A program made the position numbers and the translations under genes. This document shows, one piece after another, positions 9,873 through 39,411 of a DNA stretch of 64,000 nucleotides. How positions within the stretch are numbered: position 1 is the stretch's first letter; each line of letters opens with the position of its first letter. This DNA comes from an uncultured Candidatus Saccharibacteria bacterium (GTDB lineage: Bacteria; Patescibacteriota; Minisyncoccia; Phycocordibacterales; UBA1006), in assembly GCA_964464735.1 (NCBI GenBank), contig CAYXKF010000002.1, positions 3,833 through 67,832 on the forward strand, written 5' to 3'. The notes beneath the pieces are model-generated. The model was not told the origin of the DNA and did not search any database. It worked only from the letters and a program-made list of their open reading frames with translations.

Positions 9873-9877
9873 AAGCC

Positions 9878-10552: not shown

Positions 10553-10557
10553 AAAAA

Positions 10558-10992
10558 TTATTTAGCTGCTTTTTTAGTTCGCTTAGCAGGAGCCTTAGGG
10601 GCTGCCTCTTTTTTCGACGCGGTAACGGCTTTTACTGCCTTTGCCTTTGAAACCTTAGTGCCTTCGCGGACATCAGCAAGTACGACATGCACTTGCGCTG
10701 TTCGCTTGTTGATACGCGAAGCAGATCCGCGTGCGCGAGGCATAATGCGCTTCATGACAATTCCTTTGTTTACGGTAATTGACTTAACGACAAGCATATC
10801 AACTGGAACGCCTTGGTTATGCGAAGCATTTGCCGCAGCCGAATGAATCAGCTTGGCAATCGGATCGCTTGCACGCTTAACAGTAAAGCCTAATGCAATC
10901 AATGCATCAGGAACACGCTTACCCTTAACGGTATTTGCAACAACGCGGACTTTGCGTGGTGATTGTCGGTAGTTTTTAAGAAAAGCTTCCAT
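10558..10992 (-). CDS. rplV: 50S ribosomal protein L22 (with Lys/Ala-rich C-terminal tail)
   Basis: L22 core plus a 25-aa basic tail. Confidence 0.85.
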   Translation of the reverse strand: MEAFLKNYRQSPRKVRVVANTVKGKRVPDALIALGFTVKRASDPIAKLIHSAAANASHNQGVPVDMLVVKSITVNKGIVMKRIMPRARGSASRINKRTAQVHVVLADVREGTKVSKAKAVKAVTASKKEAAPKAPAKRTKKAAK

Positions 10993-13672: not shown

Positions 13673-13703
13673 AAAAAAGCCGGACCTATGGTCCGGCTTT
13701 TTT
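13673..13703. terminator. bidirectional rho-independent terminator between convergent genes
   Basis: aaaaaa-gccggacc-tat-ggtccggc-tttttt; overlaps the stop codon of the minus-strand gene. Confidence 0.7.
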
Positions 13704-14496: not shown

Positions 14497-15394
14497 GACG
14501 CTTCAGTGCTTTTCGTATTATCGCATAGGCGAACACGATTGCAACGGTAGCGAGCAACGCGATAACCGCAAACGATCGAATGCGAATTGCATTTGGAAGT
14601 TTGGTTTTAGTAACGGTCTGATTACCCGCTTGGTCGACTGCTTTTACCAACACCGAAAATGCACTATATGGCTGACGAAGTTTGTATGGACTTGTTGCGA
14701 CACGCCACGTAAGCAGATTTTCTTTTACTTCGAAGTGTTCGATGCCCGAACCCTGATCAGAGGCGTCAAACAAAACCGTAAGATGCCCATCAAAAAGATT
14801 TTCATCTTGCACTATGATCGGCATCATCATAACTGGCTGCACAGTATCATTGATTGCATATTCTTTAGGCACCAACTTTGCATCTGCGCGTATCGGAAAT
14901 GCAGCCATGCGCACAGTGGCAGCACTTCCAGCACCATCGTGCACCAACAACTGTGCATCCTTGATTTCAATCATTCCCGCGCCGGCGTTGGTTGCCTTAA
15001 GGATAAGCCGAACTACACGGCCCGGAAGAATATTTTTTGGCGACCGCGGATCAATGAGACCCGAAAACCCGCCAGGGACAATGCCTGAAAGCCTTACTGC
15101 ATTTCCCGACACACTGGCGCGTGAAATCCATGTAGGAACAATCGAATCATTATCAAGCGACCGTACAAAAGTAAAATTCTGAGGGATCGAAACTGCAAGC
15201 GAAATTGCATTAATATTTTGATTTTCAGGATCAAGCATGACATCAACAGCGAACTCTTGGCCAATGTGCACAGCTTGGGTATTTGACTGCAAAAAAAGTT
15301 CGGCCGCATGCACCCCCGGTGCTGCGAAAAACAGCGCAGCAATAACAAGCGTCATAAAAATGTATGCAGAAATTTTTATAAGGGTATGATTCAT
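14480..15394 (-). CDS. cohesin-like domain surface protein with signal anchor and C-terminal TM anchor
   Basis: After 'MNHTLIKISAYIFMTLVIAALFFAAPGVHA' the region 'HIGQEFAVDVMLDP..NINAISLAVSIP..FTFV ... GRVVRLILKATNAGAGMIEIKDAQLL' is cohesin-like. There is a C-terminal TM and KRHENLS tail. ATG at 15394 chosen over the longer ORF. Confidence 0.5.
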   Translation of the reverse strand: MNHTLIKISAYIFMTLVIAALFFAAPGVHAAELFLQSNTQAVHIGQEFAVDVMLDPENQNINAISLAVSIPQNFTFVRSLDNDSIVPTWISRASVSGNAVRLSGIVPGGFSGLIDPRSPKNILPGRVVRLILKATNAGAGMIEIKDAQLLVHDGAGSAATVRMAAFPIRADAKLVPKEYAINDTVQPVMMMPIIVQDENLFDGHLTVLFDASDQGSGIEHFEVKENLLTWRVATSPYKLRQPYSAFSVLVKAVDQAGNQTVTKTKLPNAIRIRSFAVIALLATVAIVFAYAIIRKALKRHENLS

Positions 15395-15398
15395 ATAA

Positions 15399-16298
15399 TT
15401 ATCCGGTCCAATAATATGCAAGGATCGAGAAATCAACCAGCGAAACACTGCCATTGTGATTAAGGTCGATATGCGCCGGCACACCTGGTTTATTGTACCA
15501 AAATGCCATGATTGAAAAATCGACAATATTCACCCTCCCGTCGCAATTAAGGTCGCCAACAAGCGCGGCGCATGAATCAAGAGGGAGTGTTTCGGTTCCT
15601 ACATTAAATTGTACGATTTTTCCGTACGGGCTTACCTCAGCCGGCAGTACCGTTTTTGATTTCGTCTCGTGTCCACCCACCTCAAGCGGTGAAGTATCAA
15701 GCGTCAGCAAATAAGCACCTGACGTGTCGGTAGGGACCGAATGGAATGTCTCGATGGCCGAATGCACCGAGATCACGACGCTTTGGTTCGGGACGCTTTG
15801 ACCAAAAATAGTCAGGTTATCGCCTTGTTTGACCGTCGACTTATCAACTGCAATGGTTGGCGATAAAAATATCCCCGAAACGTCGGTGGTAACATTACTG
15901 GTTACCATGATCGAGAATGAGATACTTTCAGAATTGCGACCATTGGCATCAGTACTGTATACCGAAAAATTGTAATTATGTTCGGATAAATCAGAAAGCG
16001 TCACGTCAAAATGCGCATCGGGTCCACTAATTGTGGTAATTGCAACTTGACCGTTTTTTAAGATGCTTACTTTTGAAAAAGGATACGCACGGCCAGAAAA
16101 ATTCACGCTGGCGTTCCCACCCGAACCTTGGCCCGCACCTCCCCCTCCTCCTCCGCCACCGCCCCCACCTCCGGATCCAGGGCTATTTACCTGCGCAGAA
16201 ATTGAAAGGTTTTGCAAATCAGTAATGGCCAAGGTGCCGTGTGCGTACACGAAAGTGCCTATCACCAGAAGCGTAGTAAGAAAAAATACCGGCTTCAT
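15399..16298 (-). CDS. secreted protein with 14-residue poly-Gly tract, Ig-like middle region and C-terminal type-I dockerin domain
   Basis: Signal peptide. G14 is encoded by a (GGN)14 repeat. The C-terminus has two canonical Ca-binding dockerin loops, 'DLNCDGRVNIVD' and 'DLNHNGSVSLVD', each followed by 'FSI.A..W'. Confidence 0.7.
   Translation of the reverse strand: MKPVFFLTTLLVIGTFVYAHGTLAITDLQNLSISAQVNSPGSGGGGGGGGGGGGAGQGSGGNASVNFSGRAYPFSKVSILKNGQVAITTISGPDAHFDVTLSDLSEHNYNFSVYSTDANGRNSESISFSIMVTSNVTTDVSGIFLSPTIAVDKSTVKQGDNLTIFGQSVPNQSVVISVHSAIETFHSVPTDTSGAYLLTLDTSPLEVGGHETKSKTVLPAEVSPYGKIVQFNVGTETLPLDSCAALVGDLNCDGRVNIVDFSIMAFWYNKPGVPAHIDLNHNGSVSLVDFSILAYYWTG
16140..16185. repeat. simple sequence repeat (GGN)14 / C-rich homopolymeric tract inside the dockerin-protein gene
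   Basis: cctccccctcctcctccgccaccgcccccacctcc on the plus strand. Confidence 0.8.
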
Positions 16299-16307
16299 AA
16301 TAGTGCC

Positions 16308-17327
16308 TTACACTTGAGGCGGAAGATCGCCCGACTGCATCAAAGATTGTCGTGCCTGATTGATCACCCAGCGATTATAACGCCTAATGAGTGTTCGCAA
16401 GATCGTAAACAAAAGAACGATTGCAATAATAAGCACAAGCAATAATTGCCATGGGAAAACATACACCGCGGTATGTGCGGTCAGTTCACCCTGCACTTCG
16501 CTATACGTTACCAAAAGTTTTGCGCTATATCGCCCAAATGCAAAATGCTTCCACTGGTAGCCAACCGTGTTAAAAAATCCGGTAGTTGATGCTTCGCGTG
16601 CATGCTTTTTGCTATCCCATGCAACTTCAAATTTGCGAATGGTGCCAAGCGGCAACACATTTCCTTGTCCTGGGTTTGCATCAAGTTTTTGCGAAGTGAT
16701 GCCAATCATATTTTTTACGGTAATTGTCCCAGTTGGGCTTATGCGGTCACTTCCGCCATTTTGGAAACGGTAGGTAAAGTTAACTGGAAGCGAAGTGTAC
16801 AAACGCTTTTCAGGTTTAAAATCAAGCAGCGATGCACCTTCGGCAATCTCGCCATTAACGCGAAGCAGCACCAGCGTACCTACTTTATAGCCAATCGAAA
16901 CTTGTCCATTATTTTGCGCTTCTGGCGCAGTCGTGCTTAAAAAAACGCCGGCGAAGTATCCTCCAGCACGCGCGTCGGCCGGTACTGGAATCACGATGCG
17001 CACCACTTGCTGCTCGCCCGCGGCAAGCGAAATACTGGTCGGTGCTTGGATCCACGATGCAAGGCCGGTCGTACTTTCGACAAAGTTTGGAGTGCCCGAT
17101 TCGCCCTGCGCCTCAAAGTTCGCCGTTGAAAAATAAAATGTCGCCGGAGCATCTTGGTCGTTGTATATCAACATGTCCCCTGTCACCACAGTGCCTGGGT
17201 CGCCAGCGACCTCGATCTTGCTTGATGTCGTTAATGCCTTAGCCGCGTACGGAAAAAATACGCACAGCATAAGCAAAGCGACAAGAATAGTTATTGCGTA
17301 TCGATATCGATAAGTCATGCTAAGCAT
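16308..17327 (-). CDS. cell-surface protein with signal peptide and C-terminal TM anchor plus basic tail (CscA/DUF916-like topology)
   Basis: N-terminal hydrophobic signal, a ~270-aa extracytoplasmic region, then a TM 'WQLLLVLIIAIVLLFTIL' followed by RTLIRRYNRW. The topology matches the membrane-anchoring partner of WxL-type surface complexes. Confidence 0.4.
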   Translation of the reverse strand: MLSMTYRYRYAITILVALLMLCVFFPYAAKALTTSSKIEVAGDPGTVVTGDMLIYNDQDAPATFYFSTANFEAQGESGTPNFVESTTGLASWIQAPTSISLAAGEQQVVRIVIPVPADARAGGYFAGVFLSTTAPEAQNNGQVSIGYKVGTLVLLRVNGEIAEGASLLDFKPEKRLYTSLPVNFTYRFQNGGSDRISPTGTITVKNMIGITSQKLDANPGQGNVLPLGTIRKFEVAWDSKKHAREASTTGFFNTVGYQWKHFAFGRYSAKLLVTYSEVQGELTAHTAVYVFPWQLLLVLIIAIVLLFTILRTLIRRYNRWVINQARQSLMQSGDLPPQV

Positions 17328-17336
17328 GGAATGCTA

Positions 17337-18392
17337 TTAAAAGTTTGCCGTCGCGACGTACGTAAGGGCTGCGGTATAACTTCCGGCTTCGGTCGTTGGT
17401 GCAATATTGGCAATATAGTGAAGCGAATAAGTTGACGTACCGGTTGCACTTGAACCGGTTGCAAACGTTGCTGCAGTGCTGGCATTGGCATCATAACCAA
17501 AGGCTGGTGTCGCGTTGTCAGAATAGGTTGCATCAATTGAGGCACCGGTACCACCTGATACCGTCGCATAAATACCAAATTGTTCGCTGCCTGTTGTTGA
17601 AGCCGCAGGGGTTGAACCGTTAGCAGTAATGGTATTAAGCCCCGAGGTAAGCGTCGCGCCTTGGACAGTAATAGTATATCCCGAAGCACCGTTGGTTGCT
17701 ACGCCAAGGGTATGTGCAACAGTATCTGAACCGGTACCATTAGTGTCGCCTGTCGCATAGCGCGCAGCAGATGTTGAAAGCGTACCAAACCCAATCGAGT
17801 TATCCGAAATAGTAAATGTCAGTGTTTGTCCAACCGTTGCCGAAACCGCAACCACGTCATCGTCGACAATTGTTGTTGTGATTGTTCCAGAATCAGCAAA
17901 CGTACCGCCGCCAATGGTCACCGTATAACTTCCGGCAGTCGTTGGATTAGTAATTTGCTGGTCGCCAGTTGCGCCTTGCGTTGCATTAGTACCAATTTTA
18001 ATGCGCACCACCGAACCAGCGGCAATCGCGACGTTGCCGTTAGTAAACGTAATGACCGTCGATGATGTGCGCACTACACCCCATGTTGCACCCGACGGCG
18101 ACGCAGCAAGCGCCAACTGTACGCCATCATCAAGCAAATCAATATCAGTATCATCAAGTGCTCCGGGGATCGAATAGTCTGACTGAAAAGTAAGCACCAT
18201 GGTTTGCCCCGACGTAAGGCCGGTTGGTGTCGTAAAGGTAATATCGTGGTCTGAAAGCGTATTTTTTTTAACTGTTGACATCGTATCAGAAAGCGATGTT
18301 AGCGAAGCTGCGCTTACAAACGAAAACGGATACAACAAAATACTTGCAAAGATTGCAACTGCCGAGATTTTTTTAAACATGGTGTAGATCAT
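17337..18392 (-). CDS. secreted Thr/Gly/Ser-rich surface protein sharing a ~170-aa C-terminal domain with the adjacent giant protein
   Basis: Signal peptide. The C-terminal 'TLTFTISDNSIGFGTLS...SGYTITVQGATLTSG.NTI...GSEQFG...IANIAPTTEAGSYTA.LTYV.TANF' is nearly collinear with the last 170 aa of ORF 18487..24681. Confidence 0.6.
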   Translation of the reverse strand: MIYTMFKKISAVAIFASILLYPFSFVSAASLTSLSDTMSTVKKNTLSDHDITFTTPTGLTSGQTMVLTFQSDYSIPGALDDTDIDLLDDGVQLALAASPSGATWGVVRTSSTVITFTNGNVAIAAGSVVRIKIGTNATQGATGDQQITNPTTAGSYTVTIGGGTFADSGTITTTIVDDDVVAVSATVGQTLTFTISDNSIGFGTLSTSAARYATGDTNGTGSDTVAHTLGVATNGASGYTITVQGATLTSGLNTITANGSTPAASTTGSEQFGIYATVSGGTGASIDATYSDNATPAFGYDANASTAATFATGSSATGTSTYSLHYIANIAPTTEAGSYTAALTYVATANF

Positions 18393-18486
18393 AGTGTTAC
18401 ATGCGCATACGCGCTGTGCTTTTTACAGAATACTTGCTTTATTCTTTCTTGTCATCTTTTTTATGGGGATAACGCGTGAACAAAAA

Positions 18487-21400
18487 TTAAAAGTTTGCCG
18501 TAACTGTATAAATAATGTTTGTTGTGTATGTTCCAGCTTCGGTGGTAGGTGCAATGTTGGCGATTGAACGGGCAGAATACGTTGTTGTCGCCCCATCCCC
18601 GCTTGCGGCACTTGCAATCGCACTTGGTGTTGTTGCATTGGCGGCGTACGCAAAACCCGATGCTGCGTATGGAGACAAGACTGCACCTATTCCTCCCGAT
18701 GCCGTAAAGCGAAAACCGAATTGTTCGCTACCGGTCGACGAAGCGGTGTTTGTCCCACCAATTGCATTAATAGTATTACTTCCCGACGTCAGCGTCGCAC
18801 CTCGAATGCTTAATGTGTACCCGGATGTTGCGTTGGTTGCGACACTAATAGTATGCGCTTCGGTTTCAGAACTTGCACCACTAGTATCCCCCGTTGCAAA
18901 ACGGGCAGTCGAAGATGAAAGAGTTCCAAAGCCAATCGAATTATCCGAGATCGAAAACGACAATGTTTGCGCACTTGCAAACACCCAACACGAGTCGTTG
19001 TTACCCGAATTAATTGAGTTTGTTGTATTGATTGTAATGGCCCCAACTTCACATCCGCCGTCTTGCACGTCTGCATAATCAACCGACGCGGTGCCGGTTG
19101 GATTAAACTGCCACTTGGTTCCGCTTGAAACCGAGCGCAGTCGGATGCGGTTACCCGCGCTTCCGGCAACGGTAAATAAATTTGTTACTGCATAAATAGG
19201 CACTCCTGAAACGGCAAATTGAACTTCTTTGGCAGCGGTATGTGTAATAGTTAGGTTATAGAATGTTGTTGAACCTGTTACTACGGCAGTTGTGGCACTA
19301 TTAAGAATCACAGTCGAGGTTCCTTGCGTAAAAGTGCCAGCATTCGTCCAGTTGCCAGCAACCGTAATCGTTGATGCATTGGCCGTCAGCGTTGCCCCCG
19401 ACTGAATATCAATTGCACCCGCATTAAGGGCATAGTTCGTTGCGGTAGTAGTAAGCGTGTTGGCGGCAATACTTACGGTTCCTGTTGCTGTCGTCGTACC
19501 ATTTAAAGATTTTGTACCACTGGCTCCTGATATGGTTAATCCAACATATGAGATCGTACTGTCGACATTCTGAGTTGTACCGTTATACTCAACCACCGAT
19601 CCTGCGCCCATCGTTCGAGTTTCGAAGCTTTGATACGTGCCTGTAAAGTTCGCTGCACCTGCCCGCAAGGTGGCATTAGTCACTGTAAGAGTGTTAGTCC
19701 CATTTCCAATAAACGAGGACGTGGCAGCGTTTAGTATGCCGTTGGTAACAGTAAGATCATGGTTTACCGTTAAGTTACCTGCACCTGGGGTTTTAATCCC
19801 TGTTCCTGACGAAATAACATCATAAAAAACTCCTTGGATGTTTCCATCCCCGTTGCCCGAAAATGTAACCTCGGATGTTCCCGGATTCATAACCCCGTTC
19901 GAGTTTTTAAGAAAGATGTTTCCACTTGTACCAGTAACATTTATATTTGAGTCGTTAAGCGTCATAATCGCACTTGCCGTGTTTGCAATTAATACCTTTC
20001 CTACGCTCAAAGCATAGTTATTATTTGTTGTATCAAACGTACCGAGCGTAACCGTCAGGGTTCCTGCAGGGTCAATAGTTGTCGAGCCCTCTAATACATA
20101 GGTTTCAGAAGTGTTATTAAGTGTCAAGTTATAGTATGTAACATCATCTGAAATCGTGGTATTACCAGAAGCATTGTTTCCCATAAGCGTAACAGTCGAT
20201 GTGCCGCGGTCGAATGTGCCGGCGTTGGTAAGTACCGTACCCGTCGTACCATTAAGGGTAACACTCGATGAGCTTGCACTAAAAGTTCCACTTGCTCCAA
20301 TATCAAGTCGACCGAATGCACAGGCCTGCCCGCCGGTTGCAAGCGTTCCGTTACTGACGGAAAGTACATTAGAAACTGTCAGGGTGATACCAGCCGTTTT
20401 TGTTCCTGTACCTGATAGAGTCAAATTATAGAAAGTAATGGTAGTACCTGAAGTCAGTATCTGAACATCACCATTTCCAACAATATCAACGGTTGAGGAT
20501 CCGGCAGTAAATATGGCAGCAACCGGCTTGGTAATATAGATTCCCGATGTTGCAGTCAATGTAATCGTTGATCCGCGGGCATTCACAATAGCTGAAGCAC
20601 TGTTTGCCCAAACTATTTTCCCTACCGAAAGTGCGTAATTGTTGGTTGTGGTATCAAGAGTCCCTGCACTAATAGTAAGCGTACCACCGGCATTTCCTGT
20701 AGTTGCCCCTTCAAGCTCGTATGTTTCAGAACTATTATTGATAGTAAGGTTATAATACGGTATATCTTTATTTATAATGGTATTACCTGATCCATTATTT
20801 CCCGTATAGGTAGTAGTAGATGTTCCCATATTAAATGTTCCAGCAGTGGATAATACAGGATCACCACTAGTCCCTGAAAGGGTTAACGTGGACGCATTCA
20901 AGGTTAATGTTCCCCCAGATTGCACATCAATAATTCCTGCGGCTAATCCGAAGTTTGACGCGGTCGTGCTGAGTGTTCCGTTAGTGAGAGAAAAAGTATT
21001 CGATACTGTTGTCGCAGCCCCTAGCGTTTTAGTTCCTGTACCCGATATGGTCATATTATAAAACGTCGGCGGAGTGTTGGTCGTCAACGCGGCATCGCCG
21101 TTTCCGCTGAAATTTACAGTCGAGGTACCCGCAGTTACCGTCGAAGATGAACCTTTGGTAAAAAGCGTTCCGGATGTTGCGGTAATATTAATCGTTGATG
21201 CGTTAAACAGCATGATGGCACTTGCGCTGTTGGCTGTGATAATTTTACCTGTTGTGAGTGTATAGTTGGAACTTGTTGTATCAAGTGTTCCCAAAGATAC
21301 GGTCAATGTTCCCGCGGCATTCACCGTCGTTGCACCTTCAAGTACGAATGTTTCAGAGGTGTTGTTAACCGTAAGGTTATAATACGGAATTCCCTGACTT

Positions 21401-24400
21401 ATAATCGTGTTCCCTGATGCATTGTTCGCCGTATAGGATACGGTCGACGTTCCCATGTTTAATGTTCCTGCCGTCGAATCAACCGGATCACCGTCAGTGG
21501 TTGTAAACCCGATAGCAGACGCGTTTGCCGTAAATGTTCCTCCTGATTGCACATCAAGGTTTCCAACTGAAAGGCTAAGATTGCTGGCACTCGTACTAAA
21601 CGTACCATTGGTAATCGAAAGCGTTCCCGCGGCATTCAGTGTCAGCGCAAGACCAAGCGTTTTGGTTCCGGTTCCAGACGATGTCATGTTATAGAATGTT
21701 GGCGACGAGGTAGCGTTTATGGTCGCGTCTCCGTTACCAGTAAGCGCAACGGTTGATGTTCCGGCGTTGAAAACAGCACTTGATGCTTTTGTAAATAACG
21801 TTACCCCTGTCCCAGTGAGGTTAATTGTCGAAGCATTGGCCGTTAAAATACACCCCGAGTTATTAGATGCTAAGTTAATTCTTCCCGCGTTGAGCGTATA
21901 GTTACTGTTTGTCGTATCCAGAGTACCCAAGGTAATCGTAAGCACCCCGGCGGCGTTGATCGTCGTTGTCCCGTTGAGTACGAATGTTTCAGAGGTGTTG
22001 TTAACCGTAAGGTTATAATACGAGACGTTGCTTGGTATCGTCGTGTTTCCTGCCGCATTGTTTCCTGTAAGCGCAATCGTTGATGTTCCCGCCGTAAACA
22101 TGCCGCCAGCCGTAAGTGTAAGTGGTGTTCCAGTTGTACCGGTAAGGGTGATCGTAGAAGCGTTTGCAGTAAGTGTTCCCGTTGATCCGATGGTAAGCGT
22201 CGTGCCTGTAAGTGAGCGCGATGTACCGTTTGAAGTATTTAATATACCGTTTACCGTAATTGTTCCCAGCGCCGGAGAGTTCACGTTCATCGTTACGGTA
22301 TCGGTCGCAAGAATCGTGATGTTGTCCCCCGCCGCAGGAACGCCACCCGTACCTGCACATCCGCTCCAGGTTGCACCGGTGTTCCATGAACCACCACCCG
22401 TTCCGTTTGTCGTACACGTCGCGTCGGACGCAACTTGCCATTCGCGCGCTTCGTGAAAAATATCTTCGCCGTCTTCAAAAAATGTCAGCGGTCCTAGTAA
22501 GTAAAACTCAGGGCTTACGTCAGGCGCGTCAAAATAGTACCCTAAAACGGTTTCAACACCCGCTTCAAGCGAAACATTCCACGTAATTTTTTGCACACCG
22601 TATTCGTAATCAACTGATTCATATGCCTGGCTATGCTGCGGTTGCGTAATGTCAAAACTTTCCGGAACAATCTCAACGACTTCGCCCTCCCAATCAGTTT
22701 CCGAAGTAACATACAGTGTTACTGGGTATGGCGCGCCAGGATAAATGCGCGACGGCCCGGTACGGCGTACATCGAATTTTGGACGTGATGCAATTTTAAA
22801 ATAATCGGTAATCGATTTCTCACCGTTGTCGGTCATCGCAGTTAGATGCATAGAATACGTGCCGACCGCACTTGGCAAATTAAGATGCGCATAGTAATCG
22901 GGTGTCATGATAACGTTATCAATCTGACAGTCAGTGTTTTTTACAATTGTCCCATTGTCAGTTGAAAGTGATTGGTTATAGCCACCAGGACCAGTAACCC
23001 TAAGTGTAAGGTCAGCATTACAAATAGTATGACCATTGTCATCAAGGACACCCATCTGCAAGTATGCATTATCGCCCGGCACATATATCGATTTACTGGT
23101 GTTGATCGAAAGAACCCCCCACGTGAAATCCTGTTCGGAAATAATGATCATCTGCGGCGTCATCAAAGACACCTTAAGCGTATAGCGCCCGGGCTTAAAT
23201 GCCCGTTCGGGTTGATGGATTGTAATTTTTTGTTTTTCGACGCCGTTTTCGACAATAGTTTCGACCGTTACAACAATATCAGTCACGTTACCGTCACGAT
23301 CAAGCACGACAGCTTCGACCGTTTGGGGTTCGTCGGCTTCGACAACTGGCACATCTAAAGTCGAGACGATTTCTTCGGTGATTGCGGCCGTAGCATCAGT
23401 AAGTGTTTCGACAATCGGCGCAATAACTTCGGCAGCTTGTTCAACAATTGGGCTTGGCGTTTCAGCATCAAGCGTCGGCACGATTTCTGATTCGGGTGCC
23501 AACACTCCAGTAATATCCAAAATTACCTCGGCTTTATTTTCAGCAACCAACTCGGTCACTTGTTCAATTGAAAGTTTTGGATCCTCGACAATAAATGTCG
23601 GCAAAGCATTAGGTGCAAAATCAGTGTCACCGTCGACGATCGAAAGCGATTCGTCGGTAATCATGACGGTCGGCACAACTGCGGGATCTTCGGCTTTATG
23701 ATATTGCGCTTCGATACTTACGCTCTCTAGATACGCCGTTAATTTTTCTGGAGCTTCGTCGGCAATAGTAATTGCAATGCGCAGTTGCGAAACATCAGCC
23801 CACGTTGAAACATCAGGATCAGTGATTTCAAAACGCGCATTGTGCCAATCACTGGTGCTAATATCTGCAAGCGCTTTCCATGTCTCGCCGTCAACCGAAT
23901 ACACGATTTTTGCAAGTGGTGCATCCGTCGCAATATCCGCGTCATTTATTTCGCCATTTGTTTCAGCTTCTTCGGCATACACTTTTGCAATCAGTGAATC
24001 AAAAAATTGCATTGCGGTCGATTCGCCATCATCAGTCGACGTATCAGAATCTTCGGAAGAAGATTCAGAAACTTGCGACTCGTTTTCAACCAGCTCGTCA
24101 TGTGATTCTTCTTCCTGTACGGCTGTCTCTTCAACAACATTTTCTTGCTCTTCGACAATAGGCTCGTTTTGATCTTCGTCTGGTAGTGGAGCCAGTGTTT
24201 GTTCTTCAACCGAAGATTCACCTGAAATCTCTGGGTCGTCCTGACTTTCAGGCGCCTCATTGTCTTGTGTTTGATTATCGGTTGGCGATGATACTTTCCA
24301 GCGAAGCGTCAAAAAGAATTTTTCAGGCGAAACGCCTTCGGGTATTTCGCCATTAAAGTCGCGACATGTCATTTCGTTCCCTGCTTTTCCTTCGGCGCTG

Positions 24401-24681
24401 TTTTCGGACGTAATAGCACCTTCATCATCCGGATCCCCGACCGCACGATCGGCATTGTTCCACGAGCCAATACAAGTATCCGGGCGAAAGACGACAATAT
24501 CAGCACGCGTATTATGAAAAGGACTTAATACAAAAAGCGCAATGATGGTTACAGCCGTCAGTATAATTTTTGATGCATGCCAAAAACCACGAGGCAACGC
24601 GCTGACATGGTCACGAATTGGTTGTAAAGATGCGGTTGATTTTACAGGCAACATACGCACGCGATCCCAAAAGCGCATCAT
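18487..24681 (-). CDS. giant (2064 aa) surface protein
   Basis: Direct reading of the translation shows an N-terminal signal anchor and then an acidic Glu/Asp-rich segment. The central part carries at least four tandem ~210-aa repeats (YYNLTVNNTSETFVL.G.TT.NAAG.LT..LGTLDTT..NY.L..G...). These are rich in T/G/N/S and look like beta-helix adhesin repeats. The C-terminus is a domain shared with the adjacent 351-aa protein. Confidence 0.65.
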   Translation of the reverse strand: MMRFWDRVRMLPVKSTASLQPIRDHVSALPRGFWHASKIILTAVTIIALFVLSPFHNTRADIVVFRPDTCIGSWNNADRAVGDPDDEGAITSENSAEGKAGNEMTCRDFNGEIPEGVSPEKFFLTLRWKVSSPTDNQTQDNEAPESQDDPEISGESSVEEQTLAPLPDEDQNEPIVEEQENVVEETAVQEEESHDELVENESQVSESSSEDSDTSTDDGESTAMQFFDSLIAKVYAEEAETNGEINDADIATDAPLAKIVYSVDGETWKALADISTSDWHNARFEITDPDVSTWADVSQLRIAITIADEAPEKLTAYLESVSIEAQYHKAEDPAVVPTVMITDESLSIVDGDTDFAPNALPTFIVEDPKLSIEQVTELVAENKAEVILDITGVLAPESEIVPTLDAETPSPIVEQAAEVIAPIVETLTDATAAITEEIVSTLDVPVVEADEPQTVEAVVLDRDGNVTDIVVTVETIVENGVEKQKITIHQPERAFKPGRYTLKVSLMTPQMIIISEQDFTWGVLSINTSKSIYVPGDNAYLQMGVLDDNGHTICNADLTLRVTGPGGYNQSLSTDNGTIVKNTDCQIDNVIMTPDYYAHLNLPSAVGTYSMHLTAMTDNGEKSITDYFKIASRPKFDVRRTGPSRIYPGAPYPVTLYVTSETDWEGEVVEIVPESFDITQPQHSQAYESVDYEYGVQKITWNVSLEAGVETVLGYYFDAPDVSPEFYLLGPLTFFEDGEDIFHEAREWQVASDATCTTNGTGGGSWNTGATWSGCAGTGGVPAAGDNITILATDTVTMNVNSPALGTITVNGILNTSNGTSRSLTGTTLTIGSTGTLTANASTITLTGTTGTPLTLTAGGMFTAGTSTIALTGNNAAGNTTIPSNVSYYNLTVNNTSETFVLNGTTTINAAGVLTITLGTLDTTNSNYTLNAGRINLASNNSGCILTANASTINLTGTGVTLFTKASSAVFNAGTSTVALTGNGDATINATSSPTFYNMTSSGTGTKTLGLALTLNAAGTLSITNGTFSTSASNLSLSVGNLDVQSGGTFTANASAIGFTTTDGDPVDSTAGTLNMGTSTVSYTANNASGNTIISQGIPYYNLTVNNTSETFVLEGATTVNAAGTLTVSLGTLDTTSSNYTLTTGKIITANSASAIMLFNASTINITATSGTLFTKGSSSTVTAGTSTVNFSGNGDAALTTNTPPTFYNMTISGTGTKTLGAATTVSNTFSLTNGTLSTTASNFGLAAGIIDVQSGGTLTLNASTLTLSGTSGDPVLSTAGTFNMGTSTTTYTGNNGSGNTIINKDIPYYNLTINNSSETYELEGATTGNAGGTLTISAGTLDTTTNNYALSVGKIVWANSASAIVNARGSTITLTATSGIYITKPVAAIFTAGSSTVDIVGNGDVQILTSGTTITFYNLTLSGTGTKTAGITLTVSNVLSVSNGTLATGGQACAFGRLDIGASGTFSASSSSVTLNGTTGTVLTNAGTFDRGTSTVTLMGNNASGNTTISDDVTYYNLTLNNTSETYVLEGSTTIDPAGTLTVTLGTFDTTNNNYALSVGKVLIANTASAIMTLNDSNINVTGTSGNIFLKNSNGVMNPGTSEVTFSGNGDGNIQGVFYDVISSGTGIKTPGAGNLTVNHDLTVTNGILNAATSSFIGNGTNTLTVTNATLRAGAANFTGTYQSFETRTMGAGSVVEYNGTTQNVDSTISYVGLTISGASGTKSLNGTTTATGTVSIAANTLTTTATNYALNAGAIDIQSGATLTANASTITVAGNWTNAGTFTQGTSTVILNSATTAVVTGSTTFYNLTITHTAAKEVQFAVSGVPIYAVTNLFTVAGSAGNRIRLRSVSSGTKWQFNPTGTASVDYADVQDGGCEVGAITINTTNSINSGNNDSCWVFASAQTLSFSISDNSIGFGTLSSSTARFATGDTSGASSETEAHTISVATNATSGYTLSIRGATLTSGSNTINAIGGTNTASSTGSEQFGFRFTASGGIGAVLSPYAASGFAYAANATTPSAIASAASGDGATTTYSARSIANIAPTTEAGTYTTNIIYTVTANF
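19600..22400. repeat. intragenic tandem DNA repeats (~630-bp period, at least 4 copies, long stretches identical) inside the giant surface-protein gene
   Basis: For example 'gaatgtttcagaggtgttgttaaccgtaaggttataatacg' recurs at about 21346 and 21976, and related copies appear near 20110 and 20745. Confidence 0.7.
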
Positions 24682-24714
24682 GCCCCCAGTATAGCAAATT
24701 AAGCAAAAAATTCC

Positions 24715-26202
24715 TTAGACAATCATCTTTCTAAACGATACGCACAGCAAACAATAAATTGCGATCATACTAACTAATGAAAGCGAGAAATTTATAGTCG
24801 AAAATGGCAAAGCGCTAATAAAATGGGCAATGCTTATGATGTACCCGATCGCAATCTTAAAAGGTAAGGCAATGACAAAACCGATTGCATACGAGAAAAG
24901 CGCAACCGGCACAAGCAACGCACTAAGTGCCATAACAATAGGAACAAACGGCACGACCAAAAGATTTGCGATAAGCCCATAAATCGCAAACGTGCCAAAC
25001 TGGTACATACTGTAGGGATACACAAAAAGCGATACTGCCGCAGTTATCGCAAGCGTCTCGCGAAGGATAAATTTTTCTGGGACGCGCGAGAAAAGATTTT
25101 CAAAGTAATCGCTTCCCAAAACCATTCCCAAAGTTGCCAAAAAAGATAAATGAAACGACACATCATAAAGCAGTATTGCCGGATTAATTGACGCCATAAT
25201 AATTGCCGAAAAGCACAGCGCCCTAAATCCAAGCGCTGGATTCCCCCGCTCTTTTACCAAGTACGCTAGTGCCGCCATAATGACTGCGCGCAATAGCGGC
25301 GGATCGCTTCCTAGAAAAAATAATATCGCTGCAAACAGCAGCGTGTGTGCTAAAAATTTTACGAAGCGATTACGGATAATTGAAAATAGCGGCAACAAGA
25401 TGATAAGCATGATGGTTACATTTGATCCCGAAAGCACCATAATGTGCGACAACCCTGCGGTGCGAAATGTATTTTCAAGCATGTTAGGTATATGTGCTTT
25501 TTCGCCATATACAATACCTGCAGCAATTGCGGCATTAGCCGGCTGTAGATAACTACGGTACGTATTCCAAAATAATTCGCGCACTTTGTTTCGGACACGA
25601 TACAATCCACGCGCGCTTTCGCTGGCAACAATGCGTGCGGACTGCATCGTGCAGCACACACCTTTTGCTAAAAGATAATCAGCAAATGTCGTATCCGAAT
25701 CACCAAGCTTTGTTTGCTTAGGCGCAAGCAATATTCCAGCAACTGAAACGGTGCTGCCTTGTGTTACTGAAGGAGTTATTGAAACTATTACCCGCGCACG
25801 AAAATGTTTTTGCAGCTTTTCACAATACGTCGAATCGTTTGAACATATAGTTCGAAAGCGCATATCAAATTGATAGCCACCAAACTGTGTTTCTGAAACA
25901 TCGGTCACTACAATTCCTTGTATAACCGACTTTTCGTATCGGCGCATAAATTCTGTCGACATATCCGAGGAACGCATAACACCCAATGAAGCGACCAACC
26001 CGACTGCAAAGGCAAAAAATATCCAGCCGATCCAACTTATTTTTGCTGTCGCACGAAAACGAATACACCAAACAATAAGCGCACTAATTACAGAAAAAAT
26101 TGCAAGCCAAAGCAGCAATTTAAAAGGCACCTGCGGCACATGCCACAAAAGGGCTCCTGCAAGCCAACTGCTTATGCATGCAATAAACCAATACCGTGGC
26201 AT
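24715..26202 (-). CDS. comEC: ComEC/Rec2 DNA-internalisation channel protein, membrane part only (DUF4131 plus competence domain, no MBL domain)
   Basis: 495 aa, 10 or more TM. ComEC-like segments are 'GIVVTDVSETQFGGYQF..RARVI', 'AIAAGIVYGEKAHIP.....FRTAGLSHIMVLSGSNVTIM' and 'LAYLVKERGNPALGFRAL'. The protein ends without a beta-lactamase-fold domain. Confidence 0.7.
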   Translation of the reverse strand: MPRYWFIACISSWLAGALLWHVPQVPFKLLLWLAIFSVISALIVWCIRFRATAKISWIGWIFFAFAVGLVASLGVMRSSDMSTEFMRRYEKSVIQGIVVTDVSETQFGGYQFDMRFRTICSNDSTYCEKLQKHFRARVIVSITPSVTQGSTVSVAGILLAPKQTKLGDSDTTFADYLLAKGVCCTMQSARIVASESARGLYRVRNKVRELFWNTYRSYLQPANAAIAAGIVYGEKAHIPNMLENTFRTAGLSHIMVLSGSNVTIMLIILLPLFSIIRNRFVKFLAHTLLFAAILFFLGSDPPLLRAVIMAALAYLVKERGNPALGFRALCFSAIIMASINPAILLYDVSFHLSFLATLGMVLGSDYFENLFSRVPEKFILRETLAITAAVSLFVYPYSMYQFGTFAIYGLIANLLVVPFVPIVMALSALLVPVALFSYAIGFVIALPFKIAIGYIISIAHFISALPFSTINFSLSLVSMIAIYCLLCVSFRKMIV

Positions 26203-26359
26203 AATTTACAAGGAACCTTCGGCTCCAAAATATTTTCCGAAGTCCGAAGCTTGTCTAAGCGAAGCGAGTTCTGCAGGACTGAGGAAAATGTTTTGGGGCC
26301 GAAGCTATCCGAGCGAAAGCGAGTTCTGAAGGATCGTGAAAAATATAAAGGATGCGAAG
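26203..26359. repeat. intergenic region with imperfect ~35-nt direct repeats and ccgaag motifs, upstream of the comEC-led operon
   Basis: 'aagcgaagcgagttctgcaggactgaggaaaatgtt' and 'gagcgaaagcgagttctgaaggatcgtgaaaaatata', plus 'ccgaagtccgaagc' and 'gccgaagctatccgag'. Confidence 0.5.
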
Positions 26360-27085
26360 CTATTGTTTTTCTTGAAATTCTTCCATAATACTTTTTTCTT
26401 CTTCTGCCGAAAATACTTTTTTATATTTTGCCGCTTTGCCGTGCACACGCGCTTTTGTTTCGTCCCAGGTTTTATGTGTCATGATTTTTCCATCAACCAA
26501 ACTGACATAGCTGTAAGCGACTTTCTTTTCCGTAGCACTGGATGGCTTGGCTGGTCTAATATTAGTCGGCACATCCATAAATGTGTCGATTATTTTTGCA
26601 TAATCGGAAAACGAATATTGTTTCGAGAATTTTTTTTTCGAATCGGCCGCAACTGTCGCAAGCTCGTCTACCCGTTCGTTCATCGAGACCCCACTATGGC
26701 CCGATACACGCTTAACATCGCATTTCACACTTTGCATAAGTGCAAAACATTTTTTCCAAAGTTCAAGATTTTGAATAGATTCACCCGTTTGAGTCTTCCA
26801 TCCTTTCTTGATCCAGCCGAAAATCCACATGGTCATCCCCTGCGCAACATACGCCGAATCGGTATATAAAGTCATGTGTGAAATATTTTTTTTATGAGCA
26901 TGGCGCAGGGCTTCGACAACAGCTGTAAGTTCCATTGCATTATTAGTTGTCTTGGTGTCAAAACCAGCGGTTTCATACACGACTTGATTATCGGTATCGA
27001 TCAAGGCAAAACCCCACCCTCCTGGGCCTGGATTTCCCCGCGACGCACCGTCAGTAAATGCAACAACTCCTTCGTGTAATTTCAT
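26360..27085 (-). CDS. rnhA: ribonuclease HI with a C-terminal hybrid-binding-domain-like (Cauli_VI / RNase H1 N-terminal-type) module
   Basis: RNase H fold with DEDD residues ('AFTDGASRGNPGPGGWG', 'MELTAV', 'LYTDSAYV', 'HSGVSMNERVDELA'). The C-terminal 'VAYSYVSLVDGKIMTHKTWDETKARVHGKAAKYKKVFSAEEEKSIMEEF' matches the HBD consensus (Y.V..G...GIY..W.E....V.G...A.YKKF...EEA). Confidence 0.7.
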   Translation of the reverse strand: MKLHEGVVAFTDGASRGNPGPGGWGFALIDTDNQVVYETAGFDTKTTNNAMELTAVVEALRHAHKKNISHMTLYTDSAYVAQGMTMWIFGWIKKGWKTQTGESIQNLELWKKCFALMQSVKCDVKRVSGHSGVSMNERVDELATVAADSKKKFSKQYSFSDYAKIIDTFMDVPTNIRPAKPSSATEKKVAYSYVSLVDGKIMTHKTWDETKARVHGKAAKYKKVFSAEEEKSIMEEFQEKQ

Positions 27086-27519
27086 ATATGTGATTCCCTC
27101 TGCTTAAGAGTTTCATTAGCCAAAACTCCGCCAATAATCTCTATCGGTGATTTTGTTGCATATTTTGCCAGCTCTTTTGCTTTTATCGGGAGCGATGCGG
27201 TGGGTTCAGTTTCAGCTCCATAATATACTCGAGGGATTTTTGCCTTAACAAGCGCAGATAAGCAGGTTGCGCATGGTTCAGATGTTGTATAAAAAGTAAC
27301 ATCAGAAAGTGAAAGAGAGTTTCGCATTTTGCAAAGTCCTCGGATGCAATTAATTTCACCGTGAGCAGTCGGATCCATATATTCTTGTACGCGATCGTGG
27401 TCGCGCCAAACAATCTCTCCTTTCTCAGAGACTGCAATTGCGCCAAATGGAGCATTCCCTTCTTTAACTGCAATCTCAGCCTCTTTTAATGCTTCTCGCA
27501 TGTAATCTTCGTGGTTCAT
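27082..27519 (-). CDS. CMP/dCMP-type zinc deaminase (TadA / nucleoside deaminase family)
   Basis: 'HGEINCI' (H-x-E) and 'PCATC' zinc-binding motifs; 145 aa; 4-nt overlap with rnhA. Confidence 0.6.
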   Translation of the reverse strand: MNHEDYMREALKEAEIAVKEGNAPFGAIAVSEKGEIVWRDHDRVQEYMDPTAHGEINCIRGLCKMRNSLSLSDVTFYTTSEPCATCLSALVKAKIPRVYYGAETEPTASLPIKAKELAKYATKSPIEIIGGVLANETLKQRESHI

Positions 27520-27531
27520 ACCGATACTATA

Positions 27532-28062
27532 TCACTCTTTAAAAAATTTAGACTTTAAAAACTGACCGAAGTCCCATAACTCTTGTTGCCGCTGAGAAAG
27601 TTTAACAATCAGATCTTCTTTTTCACTTTCTGTCAGTTCTTTGTTCACTAATCGCATATCAATCTCTTTACTCACATTCGATACGATGAATTGATCACCC
27701 TCCATATCCTGAGCCCTCAGTTTGATATATTCTTCAGTGGGTCTATTTTTATAAAACTCAGTCAAAAAAGCTTCGGTGCGGGAATATATCGAAGCAATAT
27801 CTTCTTTCTGATTTTCTGATGAAATAAGTATCCAAGGATATGGAGTATCTCCCGTACCGCGTTGTTGCACTGCATGACCGGCGTTCGAGGCAATAGTAGG
27901 TATGCCGTTTACATTAAAAGCCACGATTACCTCTTTCAGTTCCTCATTATCAATAGGCAAGCCATCTTCCATGGTTCCACCCAAGAGATTCATTTGGTTT
28001 TCCCACAGCTTCTGCTTTTGGGATTTTTCAAACTTATTAAGTTCAGGGTTCTTTGGAAACAT
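27532..28062 (-). CDS. hypothetical cytoplasmic protein
   Basis: 176-aa ORF in an operon with recJ, tadA-like and rnhA; no motif recognised. Confidence 0.35.
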   Translation of the reverse strand: MFPKNPELNKFEKSQKQKLWENQMNLLGGTMEDGLPIDNEELKEVIVAFNVNGIPTIASNAGHAVQQRGTGDTPYPWILISSENQKEDIASIYSRTEAFLTEFYKNRPTEEYIKLRAQDMEGDQFIVSNVSKEIDMRLVNKELTESEKEDLIVKLSQRQQELWDFGQFLKSKFFKE

Positions 28063-28064
28063 GC

Positions 28065-29768
28065 CTATGTAATAATATCATCTATCCGCACAAAATGCCC
28101 CCCGCCATTATAGGTATCCTTTTCGATCGTACCAACAATCACCATCGTCTGCCCGGCTTTTAATGAATCTTTTTCATAGGGCGCATAAAATGATACGGCG
28201 CGAAAGGTCTTTCCCGACTGATCCGATGCGATTATTTCAAGGTGGGTTTTGGTTTTTCCAAACCACTTAATATCTTTTATTAAGGCATTCGCAAAAGCAA
28301 AGATTGGCTTCTCATTCTCCATTCCAAACGGACGAAGTGGATCCAGAAATTCTATAATTGATGGTATCAAATCAAATTCTTCGATTGAATCGCACACCTG
28401 ATGCGTTTCTTCGTGTGCTTTTTTATCTTTCAATGAAAGATTCTGGAATGCTTCGACCAAGTCGCCAATTTTTGACGCACTGGTCGAAAAGCCCCCTGCC
28501 CCATGGTGACCGCCGTATTGGTCAAGGACTCCTTCTGGAATCATCGACAAAATATCAAGAACGCTTTCACCGTCATACGCACGGCATGAGGCGCGAATCG
28601 TATCCCCTTCGGTAGTCCACACACAGGTAGTCTTGTGATACCGATCGACCAGCGCAGACGCGACTAATCCAATAACGCCCGAGTGCCACGCATGATTGCC
28701 GATTAAAATAACATCGCCCAATTCGCGCTTGTCTAAATCTTTTTTTGCCTCTTTGGTAATCTGCGCGGTCAATTGTTTGCGCTCGTCATTTTTCGCATCC
28801 ATACGCGCGGCATATATTTTTGCATCGCGTTCAGTTGTTGCGGTAAGCAAATGGTACGCACCAATGGCGTCGCCCATGCGTGATGCGGCGTTTAACGTTG
28901 GCGCGATCGAAAAACCAATATCATCTTCGGTTACCTCGCCAAGGCGAATGCGCTTTAAGGCAAATAACGCGCGCAAGCCCGGGCGTTTTGTTTTGTTTAA
29001 CACCTTGATACCAAAATGCACCAGTGTGCGATTTTCTTTGACCAAGGGCACCATGTCGGCAATGGTTGCAACCGCAACGACATCAAGCGACCATTTTTCG
29101 AACCCATCGGGTAAATCTTTCACTAATTCGGAATTCATTTTGCGCAATGTGATGATCAGCGCGCGGACAAACTGATATGCAACACCCGCGCCGCAAATCA
29201 TCGGGTCGGCATAGTTCCCCAATTTTGGATGCACCACCGCATGCGCATCAGGTAACGTTTCGCCCATTTCATGGTGATCGGTCACGATGATAACGTGGCC
29301 ATTTTTTCGCAAACACGCAATCCCGTCATGAGACCGTACACCAACATCAACAGTAATTACCAAGGCATCCTTGCTCCAATCAGTAATCGTCTGGCATACC
29401 CGTGTCGAAACTCCGTACCCATCTTGCGCGCGGTCAGGAAAAAAGACCTTGTATTTTTTATACCCAACTGCAGTTAAAAAATCAGTAATCACGGTTGCAG
29501 CCGAAACACCGTCGGCATCATAGTCGGCATAAATGGCGATGCTTCGTTCTTCGCGAAGTGCGTCGATAAAACGCTCAACGCCACTTTGCATTCCTTCCAT
29601 CGAAAACGGATCAGCCAAGGTGTCGTATCCAACAGCTAAAAACGCTTCGATCAGTTCGAGCGTATGCAGGGCACGGCTGGCAAAAACCTTAAGCTGCCAA
29701 GGTAAATACTTTTTGCGCAGTTCGTCTTGTTGTATTGCCGAGTCGTCGACATGGATTATGGCGTTCAT
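28065..29768 (-). CDS. recJ: single-stranded-DNA-specific exonuclease RecJ
   Basis: DHH motifs 'IYADYDADGVSA' and 'VIIVTDHHE', DHHA1-like region, 567 aa. Confidence 0.8.
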   Translation of the reverse strand: MNAIIHVDDSAIQQDELRKKYLPWQLKVFASRALHTLELIEAFLAVGYDTLADPFSMEGMQSGVERFIDALREERSIAIYADYDADGVSAATVITDFLTAVGYKKYKVFFPDRAQDGYGVSTRVCQTITDWSKDALVITVDVGVRSHDGIACLRKNGHVIIVTDHHEMGETLPDAHAVVHPKLGNYADPMICGAGVAYQFVRALIITLRKMNSELVKDLPDGFEKWSLDVVAVATIADMVPLVKENRTLVHFGIKVLNKTKRPGLRALFALKRIRLGEVTEDDIGFSIAPTLNAASRMGDAIGAYHLLTATTERDAKIYAARMDAKNDERKQLTAQITKEAKKDLDKRELGDVILIGNHAWHSGVIGLVASALVDRYHKTTCVWTTEGDTIRASCRAYDGESVLDILSMIPEGVLDQYGGHHGAGGFSTSASKIGDLVEAFQNLSLKDKKAHEETHQVCDSIEEFDLIPSIIEFLDPLRPFGMENEKPIFAFANALIKDIKWFGKTKTHLEIIASDQSGKTFRAVSFYAPYEKDSLKAGQTMVIVGTIEKDTYNGGGHFVRIDDIIT

Positions 29769-39214: not shown

Positions 39215-39411
39215 ATAATAATAAAAAAAACTAATAAAAAATGTCGCGACTTTTACCATCGCCATTGTATGCTTTTACTTTTACATACACAATTTTTTTC
39301 TGGGGAAAACTAACAAAAAATCTTCGCAGTAATGTGCGAAGATTTTTATTTATTAAAACTTTAAACGCCATTACCAAACGACATGTCGTTTTAATATTTA
39401 CATAGAATAAA

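Follow-up and report, generated by a model that had tools for sequence, protein, structure and literature searches.

Does the run of ~630-bp repeats inside the giant gene of this locus mark a site of rapid length change, or is it the trace of old duplications? The question arises in a 64-kb stretch of DNA (64,000 nt, hereafter the window), for which an initial annotation had proposed near-identical tandem units, recently homogenised and open to RecA-mediated expansion and contraction. We find that the gene encodes an ordinary repeat-built surface protein and is not a fast length-switching locus. The best explanation, at a probability of roughly 0.8, is a set of ancient, diverged beta-helix modules whose copy number changes slowly and which have undergone one micro-conversion.

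The giant gene, its modules and its operon

The giant protein is identical to an entry in the NCBI collection (P0001) and is encoded on a 110-kb contig. From the N- to the C-terminus it comprises a putative signal-anchor, an acidic linker, an MG2/Ig-like region, a G8 domain, a long beta-helix of super-modules, and a beta-sandwich domain (Table 1). The hydrophobic segment near the N-terminus is a putative signal-anchor or uncleaved signal peptide, and it is this segment, read by eye, from which the surface location of the protein is taken. G8 alone exceeds its Pfam gathering threshold, by a small margin (24.2 bits vs a cut-off of 22.9), and the precomputed G8 family (PF10162) is also found on two relatives, P0002 and P0003. 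MG2, WxLIP_HBD, and DUF3290 all score below their cut-offs, and the protein matched no NCBIfam family. The predicted structure superposes on solved right-handed parallel beta-helix (pectin-lyase-like) proteins, a match that beta-helices in general would give and that fits an adhesin and a glycan-degrading enzyme alike. A sequence search of the PDB with the module profile returned no match.

As the initial annotation had it, ~210-aa modules recur at least four times in this ORF. A module HMM recovers four full in-frame copies at E-values of 1e-74 to 1e-89, plus a half copy and a degenerate copy. The YYNLT module starts fall at aa 888, 1100, 1309, and 1516 (window positions 22020, 21384, 20757, and 20136, minus strand). 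The resulting spacings of 636, 627, and 621 nt are all divisible by 3, and the reading frame would thus survive the gain or loss of a module. On its sequence, the giant protein looks like a cell-surface protein built of such modules.

The gene shares an operon with p351, p339, and a cohesin/dockerin pair, which is conserved in the related locus L002. p351 is modelled as two beta-sandwich domains, the second of which is homologous to the C-terminus of the giant protein (BLASTP 58% identity, E 5e-53). This C-terminal domain is likewise conserved in the paired giant and small genes of L002, L005, and L007. It has no Pfam or PDB sequence match, and a PDB profile search gave noise alone (E>2). p339 has a syntenic homolog in L002 (52% identity) and no Pfam hit.

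Table 1. Features of the giant gene and its surroundings, in window coordinates
Feature	Position	Strand	Description	Basis
Giant gene	18487-24681	-	2064-aa ORF	ORF list and translation
Hydrophobic segment	24517-24567	-	aa 39-55, IILTAVTIIALFVLSPF	Translation, read by eye
G8 domain	22138-22350	-	aa 778-848; beta-helix start	Pfam PF10162
Half module	22024-22335	-	aa 783-886; HMM positions 106-207, second half of profile	hmmsearch, E 1.1e-11
Module 1	21385-22020	-	aa 888-1099, 212 aa
Module 2	20758-21384	-	aa 1100-1308, 209 aa
Module 3	20137-20757	-	aa 1309-1515, 207 aa
Module 4	19516-20136	-	aa 1516-1722, 207 aa; positional ortholog of module 5 in five-module relatives
Degenerate terminal module	19003-19539	-	aa 1715-1893	hmmsearch domain, E 1.1e-13
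C-terminal domain	18490-18987	-	~166 aa, ends ..TANF; common to giant protein and p351
46-nt patch, module 1 start	21977-22022	.	Putative donor
46-nt patch, module 2 start	21341-21386	.	Putative acceptor of micro gene conversion
p351	17337-18392	-	351 aa, secreted; downstream of giant gene; two predicted beta-sandwich domains
p339	16308-17327	-	N-terminal signal-like segment, C-terminal transmembrane helix	Translation
Big_6 and dockerin protein	15399-16298	-		Pfam; synteny in L002
Cohesin-domain protein	13702-14496	-	C-terminal transmembrane helix; last operon gene	Pfam, translation, synteny in L002
ComEC competence channel gene	24715-26202	-	Immediately upstream of giant gene	Pfam Competence, E 7.5e-37
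recA	46804-47907	+		Pfam RecA, E 1e-137

Divergence and orthology of the modules

The near identity and high nucleotide identity first claimed for the units are not borne out. Pairwise identity among the four modules is 47–64% at the nucleotide level, 42–65% at the amino-acid level, and 28–39% at third codon positions. Units of a near-identical, length-variable array would be expected to share ~90% or more of their nucleotides. By the NG86 method, dS between modules is 1.7–2.7, or saturated or not computable, and dN is 0.28–0.66. Identical residues outside the 46-nt patch described below are encoded by the same codon in 34–42% of cases, approximately the level that codon usage alone predicts. 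At lag 627 the autocorrelation of the nucleotide sequence reaches just 0.355 (background 0.288 ± 0.011), and Tandem Repeats Finder, run on window positions 15000–28000, reported no array in the giant gene. The repetition is essentially one of amino acids rather than nucleotides, the single 46-nt patch excepted. With dN well below dS between units, diversifying selection, also suggested at first, is not supported. The sequences point to copies that have diverged to silent-site saturation under purifying selection, in keeping with the reading favoured above.

Comparison with the relatives indicates how old the units may be. The giant gene has four full modules and P0002 and P0003 (~51–59% protein identity) have five each, a difference that may reflect loss here or gain in the P0002/P0003 lineage. 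Ortholog identities are 74% for module 1, 65% for module 2, 61% for module 3, and 60% for module 4 here vs module 5 in the relatives. The giant gene lacks an equivalent of the relatives' module 4, the gap coinciding precisely with a module start. Each module resembles its ortholog at the same position in a relative about as closely as it does its neighbouring modules, or more closely. Within the protein, module identities range from 44 to 66%, and only the pair of modules 1 and 2 (66%) equals its ortholog value, because the start of module 2 has apparently been converted. Units within the genome are not more alike than positional orthologs; this pattern is the opposite of concerted evolution and, together with the saturated silent sites, contradicts the recent homogenisation that had been proposed. 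Since the modules match their positional counterparts in two five-module relatives, the duplications predate the split of those lineages. We also considered module 3 as a hybrid from an intra-module crossover and rejected this, as it is of module-3 type through to its C-terminal part.

The giant protein belongs to an extensive and uncharacterised family of giant surface proteins, found in this analysis in MAGs of Patescibacteria, in which the operon with p351, p339, and the cohesin/dockerin pair is conserved. The module profile matches 966 representatives at E≤1e-3; the best 150 of these are mostly 1000–6700 aa long with 3–32 matched stretches. Fifteen more distant members that we examined carry 2–9 full modules, and their within-protein module identity peaks at 0.47–0.71, leaving out a spurious value of 1.00 for P0128. 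That value is taken to be an artefact of overlapping domain hits, as the longest exact peptide repeat in P0128 is 17 aa. In a metagenome scan that yielded 80 loci, identity in the best-matching segment did not exceed 53%. Just 15 long ORFs across all loci carry recognisable modules. Length variation, as first proposed, is thus real in that module number differs among lineages (4 vs 5, and 2–9 further afield), but frequent change is not supported; module number appears, on these sequences, to change slowly, on evolutionary time scales. We found no description of this family in the literature. The PTD-repeat gene of Gracilibacteria is a different phenomenon, with 9-nt units (PMC6851277).

The exact 46-nt patch and the integrity of the assembly

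The two copies of the 46-nt patch form the longest exact direct repeat in the window, where a single other exact direct repeat of at least 18 nt, of 29 nt, occurs. Between modules, all other exact matches are at most 17 nt long. Exact stretches of 40 nt or more had been noted between units; there is one such stretch, not several. Identical codons across the patch peptide would arise by codon usage alone with P ~4e-7, and dS between modules 1 and 2, as low as 0.10 over the first 16 codons, is saturated beyond them. All module-1 orthologs carry the ETF signature. Module 2 of the giant gene reads NNTSETF where its orthologs read NGSGEVY, and the residues flanking the patch (..GIP and EG) remain of module-2 type. 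Because a module-1-type NNTSETF lies within module-2 flanks, with so low a local dS and P, the patch is, to judge by the sequence, the mark left by a recent micro gene conversion in which module 1 was the donor and module 2 the acceptor. P0002 likewise has exact patches (64+45, 42, and 31 nt) at profile positions 1–28+, but these join other modules: modules 4 and 5, modules 1 and 4, and modules 3, 4, and 5; no exact patches were found between the modules of P0003.

That exact patches occupy the same module position in two lineages might suggest that the identity is held by selection on the nucleotides themselves, through mRNA structure, a regulatory or protein-binding site, or a template/variable pair like that of a diversity-generating retroelement (DGR). 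We consider this barely credible. The patch sequences and the module pairs that they join differ by lineage, P0003 has none, modules 3 and 4 of the giant gene differ at many silent sites within the very motif where the patch lies, and the amino-acid sequence of module 2 has switched to module-1 type. By Pfam, the ten neighbouring ORFs contain no reverse transcriptase; the rest of the window was scanned in part, and the single RVT_3 hit is inside an RNase H. The copies are exact, without adenine-specific differences. A DGR target was rejected on the lack of a reverse transcriptase in the scanned ORFs and on the 46-nt exact copies.

The patch also bears on whether the locus could be a recently homogenised contingency array, expanding and contracting frequently to vary length or antigenicity. 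The units are in frame, recA is present, copy number varies among lineages, the contig of a related strain stops at an exact patch, and the 46-nt tract itself offers a substrate. It is, however, the only tract that could serve homologous recombination, and frequent RecA-driven expansion and contraction is therefore unexpected. A length of 46 nt is only just above the minimum for efficient RecA-dependent recombination in Escherichia coli. The low nucleotide identity with saturated silent sites, the lack of an array by Tandem Repeats Finder, the positional orthology without within-genome clustering, and the limit of 17 nt on all other exact matches make this reading very unlikely.

The four-module structure could itself be an assembly shortcut. 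A collapsed or chimeric short-read gene with truly at least five modules, formed by an assembler jump at the 46-nt patch or at the module 3/4 junction, would fit the five modules of the relatives, the missing one of which drops out exactly at a module start, the patch site in P0002. Two related MAG contigs (L003 and L004) stop inside module 1; L004, an independent assembly of the strain that carries P0002, stops 2 nt past a 42-nt exact patch. To this extent the view that the repeat causes assembly trouble holds up, an exact patch having coincided with an assembly break. Here, though, the 110-kb contig carries an uninterrupted, in-frame ORF, both flanks of the 46-nt patch are of the expected module-1 and module-2 types, and the module 3/4 junction has no exact repeat above 17 nt. 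An assembly artefact is unlikely.

Proposed origin, significance and comparison with known systems

We propose that the ~630-bp repeats arose long ago, when a 207–212-aa super-module was duplicated in tandem and in frame; these duplications would be older than the split from the nearest sequenced lineages, and the copies would since have diverged to silent saturation under purifying selection. The modules would jointly fold into a single, unbroken right-handed parallel beta-helix that makes up the stalk of a giant surface protein of an ultra-small Patescibacteria (CPR, Saccharibacteria-labelled) bacterium. Module number most likely changes when, on rare occasions, unequal recombination takes place in register at the conserved start of a module, each module gained or lost altering the stalk by perhaps a few nanometres. 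A single recent gene conversion of at most ~48 nt probably transferred the first residues of module 1 to module 2, and similar patches would have formed independently in a relative, at the same motif. The fold and context suggest an attachment or contact fibre that probably co-assembles, via its C-terminal beta-sandwich domain, with p351, p339, and the cohesin/dockerin proteins.

It is tempting to speculate further that the module start (YYNLT..ETxVLxG..GTLDTT) serves as a recombination anchor at which short exact patches are renewed by micro-conversion in independent lineages, allowing in-register loss, gain, or swapping of modules in the stalk of epibiotic Patescibacteria, with a possible contribution from imported DNA. 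This idea is doubtful; if true, anchor-based module exchange would be a slow, cassette-like retuning of host contact. In the closest relative, protein identity falls from 92–96% to 60–64% exactly at ComEC and the giant gene, which is far more diverged there than its housekeeping flanks. The imported-DNA idea draws on this jump and on the adjacent ComEC gene.

With units that are old, distinguishable, and in principle resolvable by short reads, the locus ought not to be labelled a hypervariable or collapsed repeat array. The few exact patches at module starts are nonetheless long enough to end contigs, and module counts taken from MAG-derived giant genes of this family therefore call for a check against reads. 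The Patescibacteria in culture are attached to host bacteria and depend on envelope adhesins; in Southlakia, a dockerin-domain protein was essential (PMC10633639). The operon of the giant gene, p351, p339, and the cohesin/dockerin pair is therefore a plausible candidate for genetic tests of host attachment.

Several known systems resemble the locus in part. In type V beta-helical adhesins and passengers (Ag43, Hap, pertactin, Vag8, TibA, FHA) the repeat is a ~19–25-aa coil rather than a 207–212-aa super-module, and the giant protein differs further in ending in a beta-sandwich domain that recurs in the product of a neighbouring gene. Pfam and NCBIfam searches, even at E≤1, detected no beta-barrel translocator or TPS domain in it, and an autotransporter or two-partner secretion adhesin was rejected on these grounds. 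Patescibacteria are, moreover, described as having no outer membrane. With the G8 and parallel beta-helix proteins CEMIP, TMEM2, and PKHD1 the giant protein shares a marginal G8 domain; the remaining architecture is unrelated.

WxL/Csc clusters of Firmicutes combine WxL-domain proteins with a DUF916/DUF3324 membrane protein. The gene order here is similar to that of such clusters: a large and a small secreted protein sharing a C-terminal domain of ~170 aa, followed by a C-terminally membrane-anchored protein. Unlike WxL, the terminal motif is Y-x-V..TANF, and neither the C-terminal domain nor p351 nor p339 has a WxL or WxLIP match in Pfam, even at E≤10. The sole trace of this type is a WxLIP_HBD hit in another part of the giant protein (E 0.056), and a WxL cluster was rejected. 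Adhesin-like proteins of gut methanogens and the tapirins of Caldicellulosiruptor have no detectable sequence relationship to the giant protein and differ in anchoring and operon context.

The closest parallel in organisation is with alpha C/Rib of group B streptococci, Bap/Esp, and Als, which likewise carry in-frame modular surface repeats with lineage-variable copy number. Those arrays are near 100% identical in nucleotide sequence and vary in length within species by recombination, whereas the units of the giant gene, at 47–64% identity, are saturated at silent sites.

Module divergence and the single exact patch

The giant gene carries an old, diverged, in-frame module array, from which a very large surface protein builds its beta-helix stalk. 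The initial annotation reported a ∼210-aa module recurring at least four times, and both the YYNLT starts and profile matches confirm this unit and essentially its coordinates. A profile built from the modules recovers the four copies with E values of 1e-74 to 1e-89, together with a half module upstream and a degenerate copy downstream. A repeat search groups four copies, spaced 621, 627 and 636 nt apart, at an identity of only 63–75%; Tandem Repeats Finder reports no array in the gene.

The units had also been called near-identical, which is wrong. In a codon alignment, module pairs share 42–65% amino-acid, 47–64% nucleotide and 28–39% third-position identity, with dS of 1.7–2.7 or not computable and dN of 0.28–0.66 (Nei-Gojobori). 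Beyond the first 16 codons, shared residues use the same codon in 34–42% of cases, approximately the expectation from the gene's codon usage alone. The nucleotide autocorrelation at lag 627 (0.355 versus a background of 0.288 ± 0.011) is a weak echo that arises because the protein sequence is conserved between modules. Exact repeats of 40 nt or more between units reduce to one 46-nt pair, the next longest match being 17 nt; save for this patch, repetition across the array is at the amino-acid and not the nucleotide level. Elsewhere in the 64-kb window, a single exact direct repeat measures ≥18 nt; it lies in an ORF for a 656-aa protein whose C-terminal part is a peptidoglycan-binding domain.

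Features of the module array and of the surrounding window
Feature	Window position	Strand	Protein position or comment
Giant gene	18487–24681	-	ORF, 2064 aa; contains the initially flagged region
Half module		-	aa 783–886, upstream of module 1; profile match
Module 1 start (YYNLT)	22020	-	aa 888
Module 2 start (YYNLT)	21384	-	aa 1100
Module 3 start (YYNLT)	20757	-	aa 1309
Module 4 start (YYNLT)	20136	-	aa 1516
Degenerate copy		-	aa 1715–1893, downstream of module 4; profile match
Exact repeat, 46 nt	21341–21386 / 21977–22022
Exact repeat, 29 nt	38043–38071 and 38616–38644		573 nt apart, within ORF 37295–39265 (-)
Big_6 + dockerin protein and cohesin protein (C-terminal transmembrane helix)	13702–16298	-	same operon as giant gene
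p351	17337–18392	-	L002 homolog at 9729–10775
VirD4/TraG-like type IV coupling protein	34457–37201	-
Two peptidoglycan-binding-domain proteins	37295–42422	-	adjoining coupling protein
NHL/cadherin/PG-binding protein	60365–62350	-

Age of the array and probable micro gene conversion

Two orthologs, P0002 (2256 aa) and P0003 (2252 aa), are 51–59% identical to the window protein, depending on the alignment, and contain five full modules each. Window modules 1, 2 and 3 match the relatives' modules 1, 2 and 3 with 74%, 65% and 61% identity, and window module 4 matches their module 5 with 60%, against 44–66% among the modules within the window protein. From this positional orthology we infer that the array was already present before these lineages separated, and that it has evolved without homogenisation. 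The proposal of recent homogenisation finds no support in these identities or in the saturated silent sites.

In a sliding comparison, window module 3 is of module-3 type right into its C-terminal part and window module 4 is of module-5 type, so that a counterpart of the relatives' module 4 is absent here, cleanly cut at the module boundary. One whole module has been lost in the window lineage or gained in the relatives since the split. Because the relatives' module 4 has a best non-orthologous identity of ∼60%, and hence is no recent copy of another module, we lean towards loss in the window lineage.

In the exact patch, the chance of 15 identical codons across YYNLTVNNTSETFVL from codon usage alone is P ∼4e-7, and dS between modules 1 and 2 is 0.10 over the first 16 codons, with the remainder saturated. 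All module-1 orthologs read ..NN(S/T)xETFVL and module-2 orthologs ..NGSGEVYVLEG; window module 2 instead reads NNTSETFVLEG, within flanks that are still module-2 type (..GIP before, EG after). A module-1-type motif inside module-2-type flanks indicates gene conversion from module 1 into module 2, with a tract of at most ∼48 nt. The P0002 gene contains exact patches of 64 and 45 nt (modules 4/5), 42 nt (1/4) and 31 nt (3, 4, 5), all starting at profile positions 1–28, an independent occurrence of the same process; in the P0003 gene, no exact patches >16 nt were found.

Such patches also bear on assembly, where trouble had been predicted; it is seen for short exact patches and not for whole units. 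L004, an independently assembled MAG contig from the strain that also yielded L001, the contig of P0002 (99.965% identity over 2894 nt), ends at L001 nt 2894, 2 nt past the 42-nt patch (L001 2851–2892), a concrete instance in the family of a contig end coinciding with a short exact intragenic repeat. The contig of L003, the window's closest relative, likewise stops within module 1. The window's own four-module count could be affected as well, because a patch-to-patch jump between two module starts would drop exactly one module.

Predicted stalk fold and wider family

Sequence searches of Pfam, NCBIfam and PDB returned no match for the module. An AlphaFold2 model from a 14-module alignment is all-beta (pLDDT 87.7), and a G8 domain, with a score barely over the cut-off, lies immediately ahead of the array. 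Together these argue that the 'repeats' are super-modules of a single, predicted continuous helical stalk, whose length should be set by module number. Beta-helices usually rise 4.8 Å per coil, from which we estimate a few nanometres of stalk per module.

Searching the module profile against 1.84 billion representative proteins gave 966 matches at E ≤ 1e-3 (71 at E ≤ 1e-30), of which the best 150 are mostly 1000–6700 aa long with 3–32 matched stretches each. Fifteen members, excluding the window protein and its two orthologs, were compared. Many, where complete, share a layout in which an MG2-like region precedes the helix and the C-terminal domain ends in ..T(A/G)NF. They contain 2–9 full modules, with a maximum within-protein module identity of 0.47–0.71 (an artefactual P0128 value set aside), and their longest exact peptide repeat is mostly 10–23 aa, reaching 40 aa in P0135 only. 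Judged from these sequences, diverged modules are the family rule and recent duplications the exception. Some members have near-identical ∼79-aa segments (P0135 aa 1952–2120, with the 40-aa exact repeat). By eye, some of the distant members P0135, P0132 and P0128 carry an intein-like insertion or NHL/BNR-like propeller runs within the helix, so large insertions seem to be tolerated in the stalk. Relatives in genome collections are MAGs labelled Saccharibacteria, Nomurabacteria and Paceibacterota.

Operon and genomic setting

ComEC lies upstream of the giant gene and p351 (351 aa) directly downstream, followed by p339 (339 aa, with a C-terminal transmembrane helix), the Big_6-dockerin protein and the cohesin protein, an order kept in the syntenic locus L002. 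The C-terminal domain of p351 and the C-terminus of the giant protein share 58% identity, and pairs of giant and small genes with a common C-terminal domain also occur in loci L005 and L007. At least 1000 homologs match p351 at 50–86% identity, none with a Pfam domain. Between the window and L002, p351 is 81.5% identical, SOD only 58% and the giant protein 51–57%. p351 is modelled as two beta-sandwich domains (pLDDT 91.4). Its very large, highly conserved family comprises ∼350-aa secreted proteins, and the source-named homologs come from Patescibacteria MAGs; p351 could be a main structural component of the surface or of a fibre. The dockerin protein has a 13-glycine run (aa 43–55). Epibiotic growth of Southlakia epibionticum requires envelope adhesins, among them a dockerin-domain protein (PMC10633639). 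ORF 14480–15526 (-), listed as 348 aa with a TTG start, shares 128 nt with the 3′ end of the dockerin gene. Since the corresponding L002 gene is annotated as 298 aa, translation probably begins at an internal ATG.

Comparison of window 24715–28506 with L003 1–6678 reveals a sharp divergence step. Protein identity is 96% for RecJ and 92% for RNase H, both in the flanks, but 60% for ComEC and 64% for the giant gene, and the deaminase gene and a 176-aa ORF (27082–28062) have no tblastn match in L003. The locus therefore seems to evolve, or to be exchanged, much faster than its surroundings, which suggests a surface/competence island. The coupling protein and peptidoglycan-binding proteins point to further envelope machinery encoded here; recA, too, lies in the window.

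Overall, the initially described modules, their period and one exact patch stand, without the near-identity, and the evidence gives no support to length variation readily driven by RecA. Copy number changes slowly, with occasional micro gene conversion at the conserved module start. The giant protein belongs to a large family from Patescibacteria MAGs that is so far uncharacterised, and it fits among the repeat-built beta-helical surface fibres, an already known kind of protein.
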